Source: a virus
Lineage: Duplodnaviria; Heunggongvirae; Uroviricota; Caudoviricetes
IMG/VR virus record: IMGVR_UViG_2859805564_000008
Reading direction: 5' to 3' (one strand)
DNA length: 53,551 nt
A program made the translations under genes and the position numbers. The notes beneath the pieces are model-generated. The model ran no database searches and had not been told where the DNA came from. It saw only the letters and a list, made by a program, of their open reading frames with translations. Within the stretch, counting starts at the first letter, position 1. Each line of letters opens with the position of its first letter. Positions 4,171 to 15,912 of the stretch are shown piece by piece.

Positions 4171-4995
4171 TCAGGCGGTGAAAGTACCAATAAAGGTTTC
4201 TACTTTGCTGTCTTTGAATTTTTCAACAAGCAGATTACGAAATTCGTTAGCCATTTCTTCCTGTACTGCTTCCAGCTGAATAATGCGCAGAACCAGTACA
4301 GGGCGATCACCAGTGATAATGCTGAGGCGTAATTTAAACGGACGTTCTTTCAGGCCTTCAAACGGAACGCATTTAAACTCAAATGCTACTGGCATAATGT
4401 CTTTAGTTTTCGCTTCGACAGACTCCATCAGAGAGCGTTTGCCGCTGAAGTCATTGTCTTCAAAATCAGCGGTCTGGTTTGCTTCAATCGTGATTTTACG
4501 GACCGCCGCAGCCGCTTTTGTTGCCTGAATGGCGTCACCATTAGCATCAAAGCCCACAAGGTAGTCGGCCCAGTCTTCAATCCATTCTGCCAGTGACTTC
4601 TGGGAGTTACGCTCGCCGTTAACAGACAACAGGGCAGAGAACGGTGCTGTCTTTTTCAGTTTGAGAGTGGCGGTGTTATCTGCGTGACCTGGTTCATCAA
4701 TAGTACCCAGGTTAAGCACACTGACGGCTCGCATATTATCAGCATCGATAAAGCAGCGGGTGCCTTCATCTGCAAGATCTTTAGAATAACGGGTAAAGTC
4801 ATCGATGCTGGCAGTGGAAAGCGCACCACGGAAACGGAAGCGATTTAAATTAAATTTTTCCAGATCATGAATGCGGAAATTCTCAGGCAATGCCACAGCA
4901 TCGGCACCAATCTTACTGATAATTTCATTAACACCCTGAGCAGAAATAAGGGCATGGATTTGATTAATTTCGGTTGCGTCTAAGTTCTGAGACAT
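4171..4995 (-). CDS. DUF2303-type prophage protein (YfdQ-like, 274 aa)
   Basis: 274-aa ORF in the position and size of KplE1 YfdQ. Confidence 0.6.
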
Positions 4996-5060
4996 AATAA
5001 GTCCTCACTATATAAAGATATTCAGTGATGAGATAAATAATCAGTTAATTAAGAACGATA

Positions 5061-5423
5061 TTAATGACCTGCTGCGCGGAGTTTTCCGTCAGGTTCACCG
5101 GCAAGAGTCAGTAATTGTCCCTGGTCTTCCTGCAGAATAGTCAGGCGACCACCGCGATTGACATACATCGGTGTTTCGGTGGTGTCTTCTTCGGAAATTT
5201 TCCCGCGGTTAGTCGGGCGAACATATGAGAGTTTGTGTTTGATTTTCACACGGTTCTCATCAAATGGTTCGATTTCCAGGTTGAGCGAGACCTTACCTTT
5301 GGTTTTCGTGTTCATCACACCGGAAGCGACTTCACTGAGAACTGCGCCGATTTTGGTTTCAAATACGCCGCCGTCCAGCTCCCCGATAAATGCCTGCACA
5401 TCAGTACTGCGTTCGCTAGCCAT
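5061..5423 (-). CDS. early-left prophage protein (YfdP-like, 120 aa)
   Basis: Track ORF 5061-5609; likely start at MASERSTDV preceded by GAGGAG; the upstream extension looks non-coding. Confidence 0.5.
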   Translation of the reverse strand: MASERSTDVQAFIGELDGGVFETKIGAVLSEVASGVMNTKTKGKVSLNLEIEPFDENRVKIKHKLSYVRPTNRGKISEEDTTETPMYVNRGGRLTILQEDQGQLLTLAGEPDGKLRAAGH

Positions 5424-10979: not shown

Positions 10980-11975
10980 GTGACCGTGAGAGCACTACTG
11001 ACCCCTGAAATTGCCCCGCGTATGGGGATCGTATTGTTCAGGCCAGGTTCAGAGCTGATGCCCCTGTTTATGCAGGGGCGTGTCCTGCTGGAGCCTGAGC
11101 CGGAGCGTTATTCATCTTTCGCCAGTGGTGCCGTTCCGGCGGCATCACAACCGCTGGCGGATGATCCTGCCGTTCGGGCCGTGTTCCGCGATGAGGCAGT
11201 GATCCGTCGTGCTGGTGGCGTGGAATGTCTTGAAAGCTGGTTACTTCGTGAAAAAGGCTGCCAGTGGCCTCATTCCGACTGGCACAGCGAGAACATGACC
11301 ACAATGCGACACGCTCCGGGCGCAATCCGTCTGTGCTGGCACTGCGATAACCAGCTGCGCGATCAGTTCACGGAACGGCTGGAATCAATGGCAACGGATA
11401 ACTGTGCCCGCTGGGTGTTGTCTGTTGTGCGTCGGGATCTCGGTTTTGATGACAGTCACGTTGTGACAATGCCGGAACTGTGCTGGTGGCTGGTTCGTAA
11501 TGACCTGGCGGATGCCTTACCGGAAAGTGCAGCCCGTAAGGCACTGAGATTACCGAAGCCTGTTGTGCCGTCTGTCACCCGGGAAAGTGACCTTGTTCCT
11601 TCGGTTCCTGCCACCAGCATCATCCAGGATAAGGCGAAAAAGGTGCTGGCGCTGAAAGTGGAGCCGGAGTCGCCGGAGTCTTTTATGTTACGCCCCAAAC
11701 GTCGCCGCTGGGTTAATGAAAAGTACACGCGCTGGGTTAAGACACAGCCGTGTGCATGTTGTGGAAAGCCTGCTGATGATCCCCACCACCTGATAGGTCA
11801 CGGTCAGGGTGGGATGGGTACAAAAGCGCATGACCTCTTTGTGTTGCCTTTGTGCAGAAAGCATCACGACGAGCTGCATGCGGATACCGTGGCATTTGAA
11901 GAGAAGTATGGCTCCCAGCTGGAGCTGATATTTCGTTTTATCGATCGTGCGCTGGCAATTGGCGTGCTGGCCTGA
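10980..11975 (+). CDS. DUF968-type nin-region protein with C-terminal HNH-like Cys/His motif
   Basis: GTG start; C-terminus CACCGKPADDPHHLIGHGQGGMGTKAHDLFVLPLCRKHHDELH. Confidence 0.6.
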   Translation: MTVRALLTPEIAPRMGIVLFRPGSELMPLFMQGRVLLEPEPERYSSFASGAVPAASQPLADDPAVRAVFRDEAVIRRAGGVECLESWLLREKGCQWPHSDWHSENMTTMRHAPGAIRLCWHCDNQLRDQFTERLESMATDNCARWVLSVVRRDLGFDDSHVVTMPELCWWLVRNDLADALPESAARKALRLPKPVVPSVTRESDLVPSVPATSIIQDKAKKVLALKVEPESPESFMLRPKRRRWVNEKYTRWVKTQPCACCGKPADDPHHLIGHGQGGMGTKAHDLFVLPLCRKHHDELHADTVAFEEKYGSQLELIFRFIDRALAIGVLA

Positions 11976-11990
11976 TTTTTTCGGAGAAAG

Positions 11991-12356
11991 GTGATGCGTG
12001 ATATTCAGATGGTTCTGGATCGTTGGGGAGCATGGGCGGCGAGTGATAGTTCAGGAGTAGATTATTCTCCTATAGCTGCTGGGTTTAAAGGGCTTCTTCC
12101 CTATACAAGCAAAACACGTCAGGCTTGTTCAGATAGTGATGCATTAATTATTGAAGGTTGTCTTGCACGTCTAAAGCAAAAAAGACCTGATGAGCATTCG
12201 CTTCTTGTGGCACATTATTTATACAGAATATCCAAGCGTAAGATTGCAAAGGCGCGTGGAAAGGATGAGAAACTAATACGCATTGAGATACAGATGGCTG
12301 AGGGGTTTATTGATGGATGCCTTTCAATTCTGGATATTAAACTTGAAATGGATTAG
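11991..12356 (+). CDS. late-gene antiterminator Q-like protein
   Basis: 121-aa ORF at the end of the nin region, just upstream of the late promoter/terminator region. Confidence 0.55.
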   Translation: MMRDIQMVLDRWGAWAASDSSGVDYSPIAAGFKGLLPYTSKTRQACSDSDALIIEGCLARLKQKRPDEHSLLVAHYLYRISKRKIAKARGKDEKLIRIEIQMAEGFIDGCLSILDIKLEMD

Positions 12357-12361
12357 TGAAA

Positions 12362-12379
12362 CCCCGGCTTAAGCCGGGG
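12362..12379. terminator. palindromic hairpin between convergent Q and NYN genes
   Basis: CCCCGGCTT-AAGCCGGGG perfect dyad overlapping the NYN stop codon; weak U-tracts. Confidence 0.4.
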
Positions 12380-13232
12380 ATGTTTCAGATTGAAGTGTTT
12401 TTTTCTTGGGCTCGTTCTTAGATGATTTTGTTTTCTTTTGACGATTGAGTTTTTTCTCTTTGCGTCTGTCAATATAATCGTCCCACCAATCAGGTTTTAC
12501 TGTTGGGACGATTCTGCAAATATCAGCAATTGCAACAACAATGTTGCTCGATTGCACTCCATCGACGTGCTCTGCCAGTGAGGGAGGAACTTGTTGGTTC
12601 ATTGGATCGAGGATAAAATCCACACCCTTTATACGGGCATGTTTAGCGGCAGGAACGAAATCAGCATCGCCAGCAATCAGGACGATCACATCAACTAGTT
12701 TCTCATGAGCAAGGATAGTTATATCCATACCAAGCTTAATATCGACGGCTTTTTGTTTATATTCGTAGTAGAAATCGTCGTTAGTTAACTCAGACCATTG
12801 AATTTCATTACGTAATAGTTTCTTAAGAGTATGTTCTTTTATTTGCCAGTTACCGACGTTTGAAAGAATACCCATACGAAGTGCCGTTTTACGATTCTTC
12901 CTTAGCTCCTCATGAAGCTTGTTTCGTAAAACATTCGGAGCATGTGTCTTGAAGTTTTTAGTTGATGGGGTTTTGTTGTCTCCATCAGGCAAAGGATACT
13001 TAATCTGTTTATCAAGCGGCGGGCAGTCGTAATAGTAAATACGGTAAAGCTCAAGTGGTTCACGGTCAGCGTGAGCACCATGTGGAACCTCTACATGAAA
13101 TTTAACAATTCGCCAGATTATTTTAACAAGTTGTTGGCTGTCTAACTCATGCCCAGGGAAATGTTTTCGTAGAAAGTAATCAATCCGACGGATGAAGTAG
13201 CCGCCGTCAATCAAGACTGCTGTTTTCTTCAT
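12369..13232 (-). CDS. NYN-domain (PIN-like/LabA-like) putative ribonuclease with Lys-rich C-terminal tail
   Basis: MKKTAVLIDGGYF ... VLIAGDADFVP acidic-residue pattern of NYN domains; C-terminal KKLNRQKKTKSSKNEPKKK; ATG at 13232, track GTG at 13244. Confidence 0.65.
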   Translation of the reverse strand: MKKTAVLIDGGYFIRRIDYFLRKHFPGHELDSQQLVKIIWRIVKFHVEVPHGAHADREPLELYRIYYYDCPPLDKQIKYPLPDGDNKTPSTKNFKTHAPNVLRNKLHEELRKNRKTALRMGILSNVGNWQIKEHTLKKLLRNEIQWSELTNDDFYYEYKQKAVDIKLGMDITILAHEKLVDVIVLIAGDADFVPAAKHARIKGVDFILDPMNQQVPPSLAEHVDGVQSSNIVVAIADICRIVPTVKPDWWDDYIDRRKEKKLNRQKKTKSSKNEPKKKTLQSETSPA

Positions 13233-13244
13233 TGAAAAACTCAC

Positions 13245-13303
13245 AAAAAAAGCTCAGAACCGTTGAGTAGACCCTAAATATTATCTACGAACAGTGCTGA
13301 GCT
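13245..13303 (-). terminator. leader hairpin plus U-tract immediately upstream of the NYN start
   Basis: Minus-strand hairpin (7-bp outer stem AGCTCAG/CTGAGCT, inner GTAGA/TCTAC) followed by U6-7 that abuts the start codon. Confidence 0.4.
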
Positions 13304-13311
13304 GGTGACGC

Positions 13312-13345
13312 AATAATTAACTATTGACATTTGCGTTGTCAACAA
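13312..13345 (-). promoter_or_regulatory. candidate sigma70 promoter driving the NYN gene
   Basis: Minus strand TTGACA - 17 bp - TAATTA, ending ~10 nt before the leader hairpin. Confidence 0.4.
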
Positions 13346-13430
13346 ATTTTGCACTGTTTAAATGTAAATTTTTTCTGCTGTCAACATATAGTGTCATCTT
13401 TGGTATGTTGACACTATATAAACGCTTACG
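13320..13430 (+). promoter_or_regulatory. candidate late promoter region (pR'-like) with repeated TTGACA/TGTCAA motifs
   Basis: Several TTGACA/TGTCAACA motifs and an A/T-rich -10-like TATATAAA between Q and the tR'-like terminator; exact promoter not resolved. Confidence 0.3.
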
Positions 13431-13485
13431 CGGTCCGCAAAAATAATTGTATCATGTTAAGAGTGGTTACTTCGACTCCTTCCTT

Positions 13486-13510
13486 AAAACCGCAGTTGAG
13501 CGGTTTTTTT
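13486..13510 (+). terminator. tR'-like intrinsic terminator
   Basis: AAAACCGC-AGTTGA-GCGGTTTTTTT hairpin with U-run. Confidence 0.65.
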
Positions 13511-13608
13511 GTACCTGTAAACCTGGTGCAGTACAGTAAACACGCTGGTGGTCGTGAATACTGGCTTTTTATCTTGCTGGCTTTTTAGACAAGAGTTATT
13601 GGTATGTC

Positions 13609-13827
13609 ATGTTAACCAGAAGGAAAAAAGACATGCTAAAACAGCAAGATATGACAGAAACGGCGAAAGTTGTTTTTAATGAATTAAGCATCGAACCGGC
13701 AACAGTCGGGGAGATTGCACAAAACACATATCTTTCACGCGAACGCTGTCAGTTAATACTGACCCAGTTGGTTATGGCGGGGCTGGCAGATTACCAGTTC
13801 GGCTGTTACAGACGCCTTCAGCAATGA
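13609..13827 (+). CDS. small hypothetical protein (possible winged-helix regulator)
   Basis: 72-aa ORF between the tR'-like terminator and the methyltransferase gene. Confidence 0.35.
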   Translation: MLTRRKKDMLKQQDMTETAKVVFNELSIEPATVGEIAQNTYLSRERCQLILTQLVMAGLADYQFGCYRRLQQ

Positions 13828-13976
13828 AGGACTTTTAATTTGTGAAAATGGGCGGCTGGTGGGTGTTGGTAGCACCTGCCAGCCATTCGCTCATGCTTAC
13901 TGGTCACAAGCGAACCACGGCCCACTGCTTTAGCGCAAAAGCAGAGTGAGCCTACCAGAGTTACGCTTACTGATCC

Positions 13977-15029
13977 ATGAAAAATACTGTAAAAATAAAC
14001 AGTGTTGATTTAATCAACGCTGATTGCCTGCATTTTATTCAGTCCCTGCCTGATGATTCCATTGACCTGATTGTTACCGATCCGCCTTACTTCAAGGTGA
14101 AACCTAACGGTTGGGACAATCAGTGGAAAGGGGACGAAGATTACCTTAAGTGGCTGGACCACTGTCTGGCCCAGTTCTGGCGGGTGTTAAAACCTGCCGG
14201 AAGCCTTTACCTGTTCTGTGGGCATCGCCTGGCATCTGATATTGAGATCATGATGCGTGAACGTTTCAACGTGCTTAACCATATCATCTGGGCGAAGCCG
14301 TCCGGACGTTGGAATGGGTGTAATAAAGAAAGTCTGCGCGCATATTTTCCTGCCACAGAGCGCGTTCTGTTTGCTGAACATTACCAGGGGCCATATCGCG
14401 GCAAAAGTGACGGCTATGCGGCAAAAGAAAGGGAACTCAAACAGCACATAATGGCACCGCTGATATCGTATTTCAGGGATGCTCGTGCCGAAATGGGTAT
14501 AACGGCAAAACAAATTGCCGAAGCCACAGGTAAGAAAAATATGGTTTCCCACTGGTTTGGTGCCAGTCAGTGGCAGTTGCCGAATGAGGCTGACTATCGG
14601 AAGTTACAGGCACTGTTTTCCCGTATAGCGGCAGAGAAGTTTCAGGAACAACAACTGGAACAACCACACCACCAGCTGGTGGCATCTTATGATTCACTGA
14701 ATCGCAAATATTCTGAATTGCTGGATGAGTTTAAATCTCTCCGGCGCTATTTCTCCGTATCAGTCTCCGTGCCTTATACCGATGTCTGGACGCATAAGCC
14801 CGTTCAGTTCTACCCGGGTAAACATCCGTGCGAGAAACCGGCGGATATGCTCCGGCAAATAATCAATGCCAGTAGTCGACCTGGTGATCTGGTTGCTGAT
14901 TTCTTTATGGGATCCGGTTCCACAATAAAAGCAGCAATGGCGCTGGGGCGTCGGGCGTTAGGTGTTGAACTTGAGTCAGAGCGGTTTAATCAGACGGTGA
15001 AAGAGGTAAGTGAACTGGTGGGGAAATAA
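13977..15029 (+). CDS. orphan DNA methyltransferase (beta-class, N6-adenine or N4-cytosine)
   Basis: DPPY catalytic motif (LIVTDPPYF) N-terminal and FxGxG SAM-binding motif (FFMGSGST) C-terminal; no adjacent nuclease gene. Confidence 0.8.
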   Translation: MKNTVKINSVDLINADCLHFIQSLPDDSIDLIVTDPPYFKVKPNGWDNQWKGDEDYLKWLDHCLAQFWRVLKPAGSLYLFCGHRLASDIEIMMRERFNVLNHIIWAKPSGRWNGCNKESLRAYFPATERVLFAEHYQGPYRGKSDGYAAKERELKQHIMAPLISYFRDARAEMGITAKQIAEATGKKNMVSHWFGASQWQLPNEADYRKLQALFSRIAAEKFQEQQLEQPHHQLVASYDSLNRKYSELLDEFKSLRRYFSVSVSVPYTDVWTHKPVQFYPGKHPCEKPADMLRQIINASSRPGDLVADFFMGSGSTIKAAMALGRRALGVELESERFNQTVKEVSELVGK

Positions 15030-15105
15030 TTCTGGTGGCCACGTTGCGTGGCCTTTTTATTTCCAACACAGCACCCGCAAATATCGCGAGGTGAGAGATG
15101 ACGAA

Positions 15106-15432
15106 ATGCCTCATAACCCAAATACCTGGCTGGACTTGGTCCAGAGCTGGTGGCGTGGAGACACACCGCTGGGTGCAGTGATTATGTCGATCGTTATGGC
15201 TGGTTTGCGCATCGCCTATTTTGGCGGTGGTGGTGGCTGGAAGCGAAAAACGCTCGAGATTTTGCTATGTGGCGCTCTGACGCTGACCTTTGCATCCGCT
15301 CTTGAGTATGTCGGATGGCCTAAATCACTTTCTGTTGCCATTGGTGGTGGGGTGGGGCTGATCGGTGTCGATGCTATTCGTGGGGCTGCAATGCGAGTAA
15401 TCGGTAACAAATTTGGTGGCTCTAAGGAGTAA
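15106..15432 (+). CDS. holin (putative)
   Basis: ~108-aa protein with 2-3 predicted TM segments and charged C-terminus, immediately upstream of the endolysin. Confidence 0.6.
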   Translation: MPHNPNTWLDLVQSWWRGDTPLGAVIMSIVMAGLRIAYFGGGGGWKRKTLEILLCGALTLTFASALEYVGWPKSLSVAIGGGVGLIGVDAIRGAAMRVIGNKFGGSKE

Positions 15433-15435
15433 TTT

Positions 15436-15912
15436 ATGCAGGTACTAAATTCCCAGCGTAAAGCTTTCCTTGATATGGTGGCTTGGTCAGAAGGAACGGA
15501 TAACGGACGACAACCGACACGTAACCACGGTTATGACGTTATTGTCGGTGGTGAACTCTTCACTGATTACTCCGATCACCCTCGCAAACTTGTCACGCTA
15601 AACCCCAAACTCAAATCAACAGCCGCCGGACGTTACCAGCTTCTTTCACGTTGGTGGGATGCTTACCGTAAACAGCTTGGTTTGAAAGACTTCTCCCCCA
15701 AAAGCCAGGACGCTGTGGCATTGCAGCAGATTAAAGAACGTGGCGCTTTACCGATGATTGATCGTGGTGATATTCGTCAGGCTATCGACCGTTGCAGCAA
15801 TATCTGGGCTTCGTTGCCGGGCGCTGGTTACGGTCAGTTCGAGCATAAGGCTGACAGCCTGATTGCAAAATTCAAAGAAGCAGGCGGAACGGTCAGAGAG
15901 ATTGAGGTATGA
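15436..15912 (+). CDS. R: endolysin, lambda R-type lytic transglycosylase
   Basis: 158 aa, near-identical in pattern to lambda R ([21 protein letters not shown]...). Confidence 0.9.

Follow-up and report, generated by a model that had tools for sequence, protein, structure and literature searches.

Upstream of a gene for an NYN-domain nuclease, the window (the whole 53,551-nt stretch of viral DNA analyzed here) carries one copy of a conserved structured RNA, about 60 nt long, which stands ahead of NYN genes in several bacterial phyla and in many temperate phages. This RNA is the only conserved partner of the NYN gene across the 80 genomic loci compared, and no description of the association was found in the literature searched from the angles of toxin-antitoxin systems, RNA motifs, sarcin-ricin loops and anti-phage defense. 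We favor, at a probability of about 0.45, the reading that RNA and nuclease form a pair resembling type III toxin-antitoxin systems.

A promoter, a hairpin and a U-tract ahead of the NYN gene

Genomically, this part of the window is the late-regulatory region of an E. coli lambdoid prophage, where a DUF968 gene (10980-11975, plus strand) is followed by the Q antiterminator gene (11991-12356, plus strand; PF06530, E = 1e-51), which forms the left edge of a cargo slot and is convergent with the NYN gene (12369-13232, minus strand). The latter encodes a LabA-like nuclease of 287 aa with a PIN-like fold and conserved acidic residues (Pfam PF01936, E = 1.4e-9). The stops of the NYN gene (12369) and Q (12356) have 12 nt and no terminator between them, so that transcripts reading through the NYN gene would enter Q in antisense. 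On the other side, an intergenic region of 376 nt separates the NYN gene from a 72-aa winged-helix ORF (13609-13827, plus strand; phrog_331, TrmB-like in the phiP27 annotation), downstream of which lie a DNA methyltransferase gene and then the lysis genes. The right edge of the slot is formed by a putative late promoter and a terminator (13426-13511, plus strand): the promoter, whose assignment we infer, consists of TTACGC (13426-31), 18 nt and TATCAT (13450-55), and the terminator is a bidirectional-looking hairpin (13487-13511) between A4 and T7. This unit resembles a pR'-tR' unit, the phage SfV annotation has a terminator there, and the minus strand of the 13487-13511 terminator gives a weak Rfam match to STnc130 (E = 0.91).

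Reading toward the NYN gene on the minus strand, a -35 hexamer TTGACA (13342-13337), evident by direct reading and in a promoter scan, is followed by a -10 element that can be taken as TAATTA (13319-13314, 17-nt spacer) or AATTAT (13318-13313, 18-nt spacer). The scan, with TTGACA, the 18-nt spacer and AATTAT, scored 10 of 12 matches, the best promoter-like site in 11000-15500, and thus bears out the near-consensus promoter (TTGACA, 17 bp, TAATTA) that a sequence-only reading of this DNA had claimed. The same reading had placed a stable hairpin within about 10 nt of the promoter, and this also held: 10 nt after the -10 element begins a 53-nt, three-part hairpin (13303-13251) with a centroid energy of -22.4 kcal/mol (z = -2.97; one of 200 shuffled sequences was as stable). 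It comprises P1 (7 bp, AGCUCAG/CUGAGCU, 13303-13297/13257-13251), P2 (6 bp, ACUGUU/AACGGU, 13295-13290/13264-13259), P3 (6 bp, GUAGAU/GUCUAC, 13288-13283/13272-13267) and a 10-nt apical loop, AAUAUUUAGG (13282-13273), with a C.U mismatch between P1 and P2 and a bulge after P2. With an energy of about -20 to -22 kcal/mol and a U7 tract (13251-13245) directly 3' of the stem, the hairpin has the stem-loop and U-tract signature of an intrinsic terminator; it was absent from a simple terminator scan because the loop limit of that scan is 8 nt. Transcription probably starts near A13306, and from there to a predicted 3' end at the U7 the leader RNA would measure about 60 nt.

The U-run had also been said to end right at the NYN start. 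The U7 is present, but it abuts only an in-frame GTG (13244), which is the longest start in the ORF list; the true start lies 12 nt beyond it, at the ATG 13232, since all 19 aligned homologues (alignment A1) share the N-terminus MKKTAVLIDGG. Between U-tract and ATG, a direct reading of the sequence gives a 12-nt spacer, GUGAGUUUUUCA (13233-13244, minus strand), which has a weak Shine-Dalgarno (GAG) and is too small for a second promoter. With only these 12 nt from U-run to ATG, every NYN mRNA in the window must be a read-through product.

The intergenic region holds further repeats. Three TGTCAAC/GTTGACA motifs, including direct repeats at 13330-13347 and 13372-13389, lie between the NYN promoter and the putative late promoter (13330-13422, plus strand), as does a perfect 11-bp inverted repeat, ATATAGTGTCA/TGACACTATAT, at 13386-13396 and 13409-13419. 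All of these repeats might serve as operators or bind Q, and other NYN loci do not share them. Just upstream of the winged-helix ORF, an exact 11-nt direct repeat, CTGGCTTTTTA, occurs in two copies 16 nt apart (13561-13587, plus strand).

Two covarying classes of leader RNA

The 80 genomic loci that we fetched encode NYN relatives 40-79% identical, and in nearly all of them a promoter of the sigma-70 type comes first, then a long hairpin and its U-run, and then, after a short spacer that includes a Shine-Dalgarno, the start codon. Structurally, their leader RNAs fall into two classes. Class A, to which the window belongs together with Enterobacterales, Pseudomonas, Acinetobacter and other Gammaproteobacteria, folds into three helices capped by a loop of 10-12 nt, whose consensus is AAUnGUUAG and in which TTA is invariant. 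RNAalifold found compensatory changes in 13 of its 14 pairs, and in a model-based alignment of 24 sequences 14 of 15 pairs change on both sides. In that alignment 91.9% of cells are paired versus 71% in shuffles, none of 500 shuffles reaching 91.9%, and controls in which the partner strand was slid pair 24-43% of cells. Past the stem, alignment A2 has T columns that never vary, and the U-runs of the homologues measure 3-9. The window copy is assigned to class A by its fold, by alignments A2 and A5 and by the covariance model R1, which scores it at 74 bits on the minus strand (13242-13307) versus 18 bits on the plus strand. Model matches of 70-75 bits were also obtained outside the seed, before NYN genes of the phages ev099 and Brookers, an Edwardsiella prophage and P. 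syringae. An element acting at the DNA level or on the opposite strand was considered and is ruled out by the G.U pairs (about 16 G.U cells in the helices of the class A alignment), the strand-specific model score and the one-sided U-tract. An Rfam search of 11500-15500 returned no riboswitch match.

Class B stands before NYN genes that are more distant, from Beta- and Gammaproteobacteria, Acidobacteria, Lentisphaerae, Bacteroidota and Clostridia. Its P1 of 8 bp is separated from a second helix by an internal loop, invariantly AGUA/GAA, of the sarcin-ricin or loop E type. Even in a structure-blind MAFFT alignment of 36 sequences, 86.8% of its cells are paired and 14 of 15 pairs are compensatory. 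Class A, the window included, is without AGUA/GAA and has the C.U mismatch and a third helix there instead, so that recognition determinants are not uniform across the family. The second model, R2, also scores some class A members (L016 and L019), and the two classes therefore grade into each other. The leader had earlier been described as terminator-like; a promoter-proximal terminator signature does stand on every NYN transcript, but the element is not just any terminator: it is a structured RNA that has been conserved.

The promoter keeps its place relative to the RNA. In 22 of the 24 class A loci, a TTGAC[AGT] hexamer, a spacer of 16-18 nt and a TAnnnT element end 9-13 nt before P1, and in class B the -10 element lies 5-7 nt before a conserved CAUCC that precedes P1. 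From these distances the transcript is predicted to begin 2-6 nt before the first stem, so close that an antiterminator, aptamer or leader peptide would find no room.

Two observations concern the range of these structures. Upstream of 2501 in two Flavobacteria-type loci (L052 and L063), a longer hairpin of about 75 nt (GUCCAUUGAGC...GACAAA..UUUGGAC and U7-9) that neither R1 nor R2 detects stands before the NYN gene, and it may represent a third structural class of leader RNA. Within class B (alignment A4), CAUCC is common to the single-stranded 5' end and the apical loop (..CAUCC..); these may be two copies of one recognition or cleavage site.

The RNA as the conserved partner of NYN genes

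R1 and R2 match directly upstream of the NYN start in 70 of the 80 genome loci, spread over Gamma- and Betaproteobacteria, Acidobacteria, Lentisphaerae, Bacteroidota and Clostridia. About 10 of the 80 have no R1 or R2 match, and several of these have a different hairpin and U-run. Among IMG/VR contigs, 39 of the 41 that are model-positive have an NYN ORF 6-11 nt past the model end. No neighboring protein shows conservation over the 80 loci, and the next gene downstream is oriented at random (39 on the same strand, 36 on the opposite one). We define an NYN-leader RNA superfamily, made up of classes A and B, by a promoter-proximal hairpin and U-tract before a PF01936 gene, with covarying helices, and the window copy has all of these.

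The invariant acidic residues of the NYN protein (D9, D164, D170, D189 and D191) are typical of PIN-like nucleases, and its C-terminal tail is rich in Lys and Arg. The gene matches phrog_5783, of unknown function, and PHROGs and NCBIfam give no function. A search of PDB sequences with the NYN profile gave no match; an AF2 model of moderate quality (pLDDT 73) found its best Foldseek matches in the LabA-like structure 2qip and the NYN domain of MARF1, which is to say the generic NYN/LabA fold. PADLOC-DB v2 returned marginal local matches only, to the HEC-09 and NYN models (E about 5e-4, over 47 aa). The set of NYN/LabA-like homologues exceeds 8000 clusters at 90% identity.

Kinship with the staphylococcal RNA Teg147

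The more distant of the two classes, class B with its sarcin-ricin-like loop, includes the RNA that Rfam lists as TEG147 (RF03535). Teg147 is counted among the bona fide sRNAs of S. aureus HG003, at 60 nt and with no Northern validation listed (PMC5826253); its locus is part of a genomic island (PMC3053349), a sarcin-ricin motif has been predicted in it (PMC13085918), and it entered Rfam via a student curation course (PMC7779021). It is described only as a staphylococcal sRNA of unknown function, and we found no link to NYN in the literature searched; the type label that Rfam gives it is 'Cis-reg'.

In a second homologue search S. aureus was not among the matches listed, and the link was made through a search of IMG/VR with a Teg147-core pattern, which found five contigs, all matched by R2 (23-32 bits). 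In one of them (L085) a Teg147-type RNA stands before an NYN gene that is intact and whose product is 58% identical to the protein of a Clostridia locus (L037), whose own leader gives a sub-threshold match to RF03535 (35.3 bits versus a gathering threshold of 56.1). In the S. aureus-type contigs L082, L083, L084 and L086, all that comes after the Teg147 RNA is a remnant of the NYN N-terminus, 18 codons long (IDKVAILIYGVFIS*). With a remnant alone in these contigs and the whole NYN gene in L085, Teg147 has the look of an NYN leader that was orphaned.

In build, Teg147 has the same parts as the cassette RNA: a promoter, about 6 nt, a long hairpin with an internal loop and a U-tract, for about 60 nt in total, and its annotated ends fall 6 nt past the promoter and at the U-tract. 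It differs from the RNA of the window, a diverged class A member without AGUA/GAA and with another conserved apical loop. The window RNA is accordingly not a member of RF03535, neither by score (positions 11500-15500 of the window gave no match to RF03535 even at E <= 10) nor by the AGUA-GAA architecture, which its class B relatives do have.

For the fate of the transcript, Teg147 is the closest guide. The sequence-only reading had offered a short leader RNA as one possible product, and this is the best-supported outcome, given that the S. aureus homologue was annotated from transcriptomes as an independent 60-nt sRNA. That literature on a distant homologue is the sole experimental support for the terminated leader accumulating as a separate RNA. 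A strong promoter followed at once by a terminator would moreover be wasteful unless the short RNA were itself a product, which likewise speaks for a short RNA product.

Carriage in prophages and loss of the nuclease

Class A cassettes are prophage cargo, placed either after cI, in the position of rex, or, as here, antisense between Q and the late promoter. In the Escherichia phage ev099 and the Proteus phage Brookers, RNA and NYN gene lie directly downstream of cI; their RNAs score 72 and 71 bits, and neither was used in model building. Of the 41 viral copies, 21 come directly after cI genes that are 31-100% identical to the cI of ev099, a spread that implies many immunity types, and in 7 of the 41 model-positive IMG/VR contigs the cassette adjoins Q, as in the window. 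An Edwardsiella prophage has the cassette antisense between an unrelated Q (PF03589) and a holin gene, and in P. syringae it stands at the prophage end. Phage cdtI (L206, 41-1429) has two unrelated hypothetical genes (148 and 314 aa) in antisense in the gap between Q and the late region. Homology of the window to cdtI and to other phages without an NYN cassette starts at about 13429, and together with the other antisense genes in the cdtI gap this suggests that the gap between Q and the late promoter is a cargo hotspot.

These positions invite comparison with exclusion cargo that lysogens express next to cI and with other lambdoid morons. Where the cassette follows cI at once, as in ev099, Brookers and 21 IMG/VR contigs, it has the position of lambda rexAB, and in the window it fills the slot between Q and the late promoter, where cdtI has its two different antisense genes; the NYN cassette differs from Rex in having its own promoter and RNA partner, with no sequence similarity to Rex. 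By position, the cassette may have a defense function.

Among 5426 complete E. coli genomes, 27 carry the exact module of the window, E. coli WP5-W18-ESBL-11 and A0 34/86 having it intact. In three of the 27 carriers IS1 splits the NYN gene and leaves leader RNA and promoter whole (hits H101, H109 and H114; L001, NZ_CP024257.1, 2393-3885). One viral contig has a class A RNA ahead of an NYN gene that is frameshifted or has lost an internal part (L142, about 4796-5100, reverse complement), and in another an orphan RNA occurs with no NYN gene and no obvious promoter (L105, 2796-2861).

A proposed RNA-restrained nuclease and its alternatives

Functionally, the leader RNA would most likely limit or neutralize the NYN nuclease. 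We propose that a constitutive sigma-70 promoter would start transcription 2-6 nt before the conserved three-helix hairpin, that hairpin and U-tract would act as an intrinsic terminator at which most transcripts would stop as a structured RNA of about 60 nt, and that the NYN ORF would be carried only by read-through transcripts, making the nuclease a small fraction of the RNA. The apical loop AAUnGUUAG of class A and the AGUA/GAA loop of class B, which a terminator does not need, would form the recognition surface for the NYN protein, and the abundant RNA would bind and restrain the nuclease, following the logic of type III toxin-antitoxin systems; a lysogen could thus safely carry an RNase-type exclusion or abortive-infection effector. 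Within this scheme we infer the termination efficiency here, the binding of NYN to the RNA, the toxicity and the role in defense. We favor a restraining RNA because the promoter-terminator arrangement is conserved, because the slots are ones expressed in lysogens, and because the RNA outlasts the nuclease in repeated cases of loss.

Type III toxin-antitoxin systems (ToxIN, CptIN and TenpIN) are found on mobile elements and act in abortive infection, their toxin gene being expressed only by read-through. They share with the present cassette the order of one promoter, an RNA, a terminator and then a gene of a nuclease family, here with 12 nt from U-tract to ATG. They differ in that their antitoxin is a tandem repeat, whereas the RNA here is a single hairpin (Tandem Repeats Finder, at a score >= 30, found no tandem repeats in 13200-13650), and in that their toxins are of the ToxN/AbiQ/CptN/TenpN kind, whereas the protein here is an NYN protein of PF01936 with a PIN-like fold. 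Both differences count against a type III-like pair. So do the lack of AGUA/GAA in class A, with the resulting lack of uniformity in recognition determinants, the roughly 10 of 80 NYN loci without a model match, the marginal PADLOC matches and the listing of Teg147 without Northern validation in PMC5826253; co-inheritance of RNA and gene, for its part, would be equally expected of a purely cis-acting leader.

If the RNA does restrain the nuclease, then Teg147, an Rfam sRNA of unknown role, would gain a genetic context and a testable function, and its family, so far staphylococcal, would take in several phyla and many temperate phages, Stx2a-converting ones among them. An RNA would turn out to be the one conserved partner of a very large, uncharacterized family of NYN/LabA-like nucleases, which would point to RNA control of these enzymes, and the recurrent slots next to cI and Q would yield candidate defense or exclusion systems that are expressed in lysogens and follow a type III-like logic with new parts. 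A bolder version, which we find doubtful, is that the cassettes form a new class of RNA-protein toxin-antitoxin or abortive-infection system, widespread in bacteria and preferentially in prophage immunity regions, in which the RNA of about 60 nt would serve as decoy or antitoxin for an NYN (PIN-like) ribonuclease and would in most lineages mimic the sarcin-ricin loop, the nuclease possibly targeting ribosomal or other S-turn RNA and Teg147 being an orphaned antitoxin.

The strongest competitor, possible although in our judgment rather unlikely, is a leader that acts in cis, in which NYN would bind or cleave the hairpin on its own read-through mRNA in negative feedback and the terminated RNA would be a by-product or buffer. 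RNase E and RNase III regulate their own synthesis in this manner through their 5' UTRs, and Regnase-1 does so through a stem-loop in its own mRNA. Like the rne 5' UTR, the rnc leader, the L20-type attenuators and Regnase-1, the NYN cassette combines a conserved structured 5' leader with the gene of an RNA-binding or RNA-cleaving protein, and in class B this leader has an rRNA-like (sarcin-ricin) module. The data on conservation and coupling fit autoregulation equally well, the hairpin stands at the 5' end of every NYN mRNA, and 'Cis-reg' is what Rfam calls TEG147. Yet the NYN leader differs from those leaders in that its structure is the terminator itself, at the very 5' end and with no alternative fold, and in that the short RNA is a separate species in the one organism examined (S. 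aureus, as Teg147). Autoregulation also leaves the conservation across phyla of a near-consensus -35 and a full U-tract to be explained, when a weak promoter would suffice, as well as the persistence of RNA and promoter where NYN is lost. Even if the RNA were cis-regulatory, it would be a widespread leader RNA supported by covariation, of which no description was found in the literature searched.

A passive element, that is, a constitutive attenuator or insulator with a stabilizing stem-loop at the 5' terminus that would hold NYN at a low fixed level with no specific protein recognition, appears improbable. It would account for the strong terminator signature, which at the copies next to cI would stop read-through from cI, and protective 5' hairpins typically have a start as close to the stem as the one predicted here (2-6 nt). 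It does not account for the invariance of nucleotides outside the helices (AGUA/GAA in class B, TTA of the loop in class A) or for a three-helix architecture that covariation keeps over several phyla, unlike generic terminators.

Very little probability, in our view, attaches to conditional read-through, whether through Q, another processive antiterminator or an attenuator that senses a ligand or translation. Two earlier suggestions pointed this way, namely attenuation or antitermination at the hairpin and a likeness to the pR'-tR' arrangement, and the window copy does adjoin Q and lie opposite a pR'-tR'-like unit. Attenuation by alternative pairing is not supported, because the predicted start, only 2-6 nt before the first stem, leaves no antiterminator sequence, and no room for a leader peptide either. 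The likeness to pR'-tR' is not supported either: a lambdoid pR'-tR' unit lies downstream of Q in the orientation of the late operon, whereas the NYN cassette is oriented against that operon, adjoins Q proteins of two unrelated families (PF06530 here, PF03589 in Edwardsiella) and has no Q nearby where it follows cI (21 of 41 viral contigs) or stands at non-phage loci of several phyla. As it occurs after cI, at the P. syringae prophage end, and in chromosomal and MAG contigs, the non-phage ones coming from several phyla, we take its logic to be self-contained and independent of Q.

Finally, a trans-acting base-pairing sRNA (Hfq-type or like P1 c4), whose apical loop would pair with the NYN translation start or with other mRNAs, would suit a hairpin of terminator type that has a U-tail and whose single-stranded loop is conserved, but it is hardly credible when duplexes between loop and start region are no better than those of shuffled loops (22 loci, mean z = +0.37) and when the strict linkage to NYN over several phyla is not what a regulator of host genes would be expected to show.
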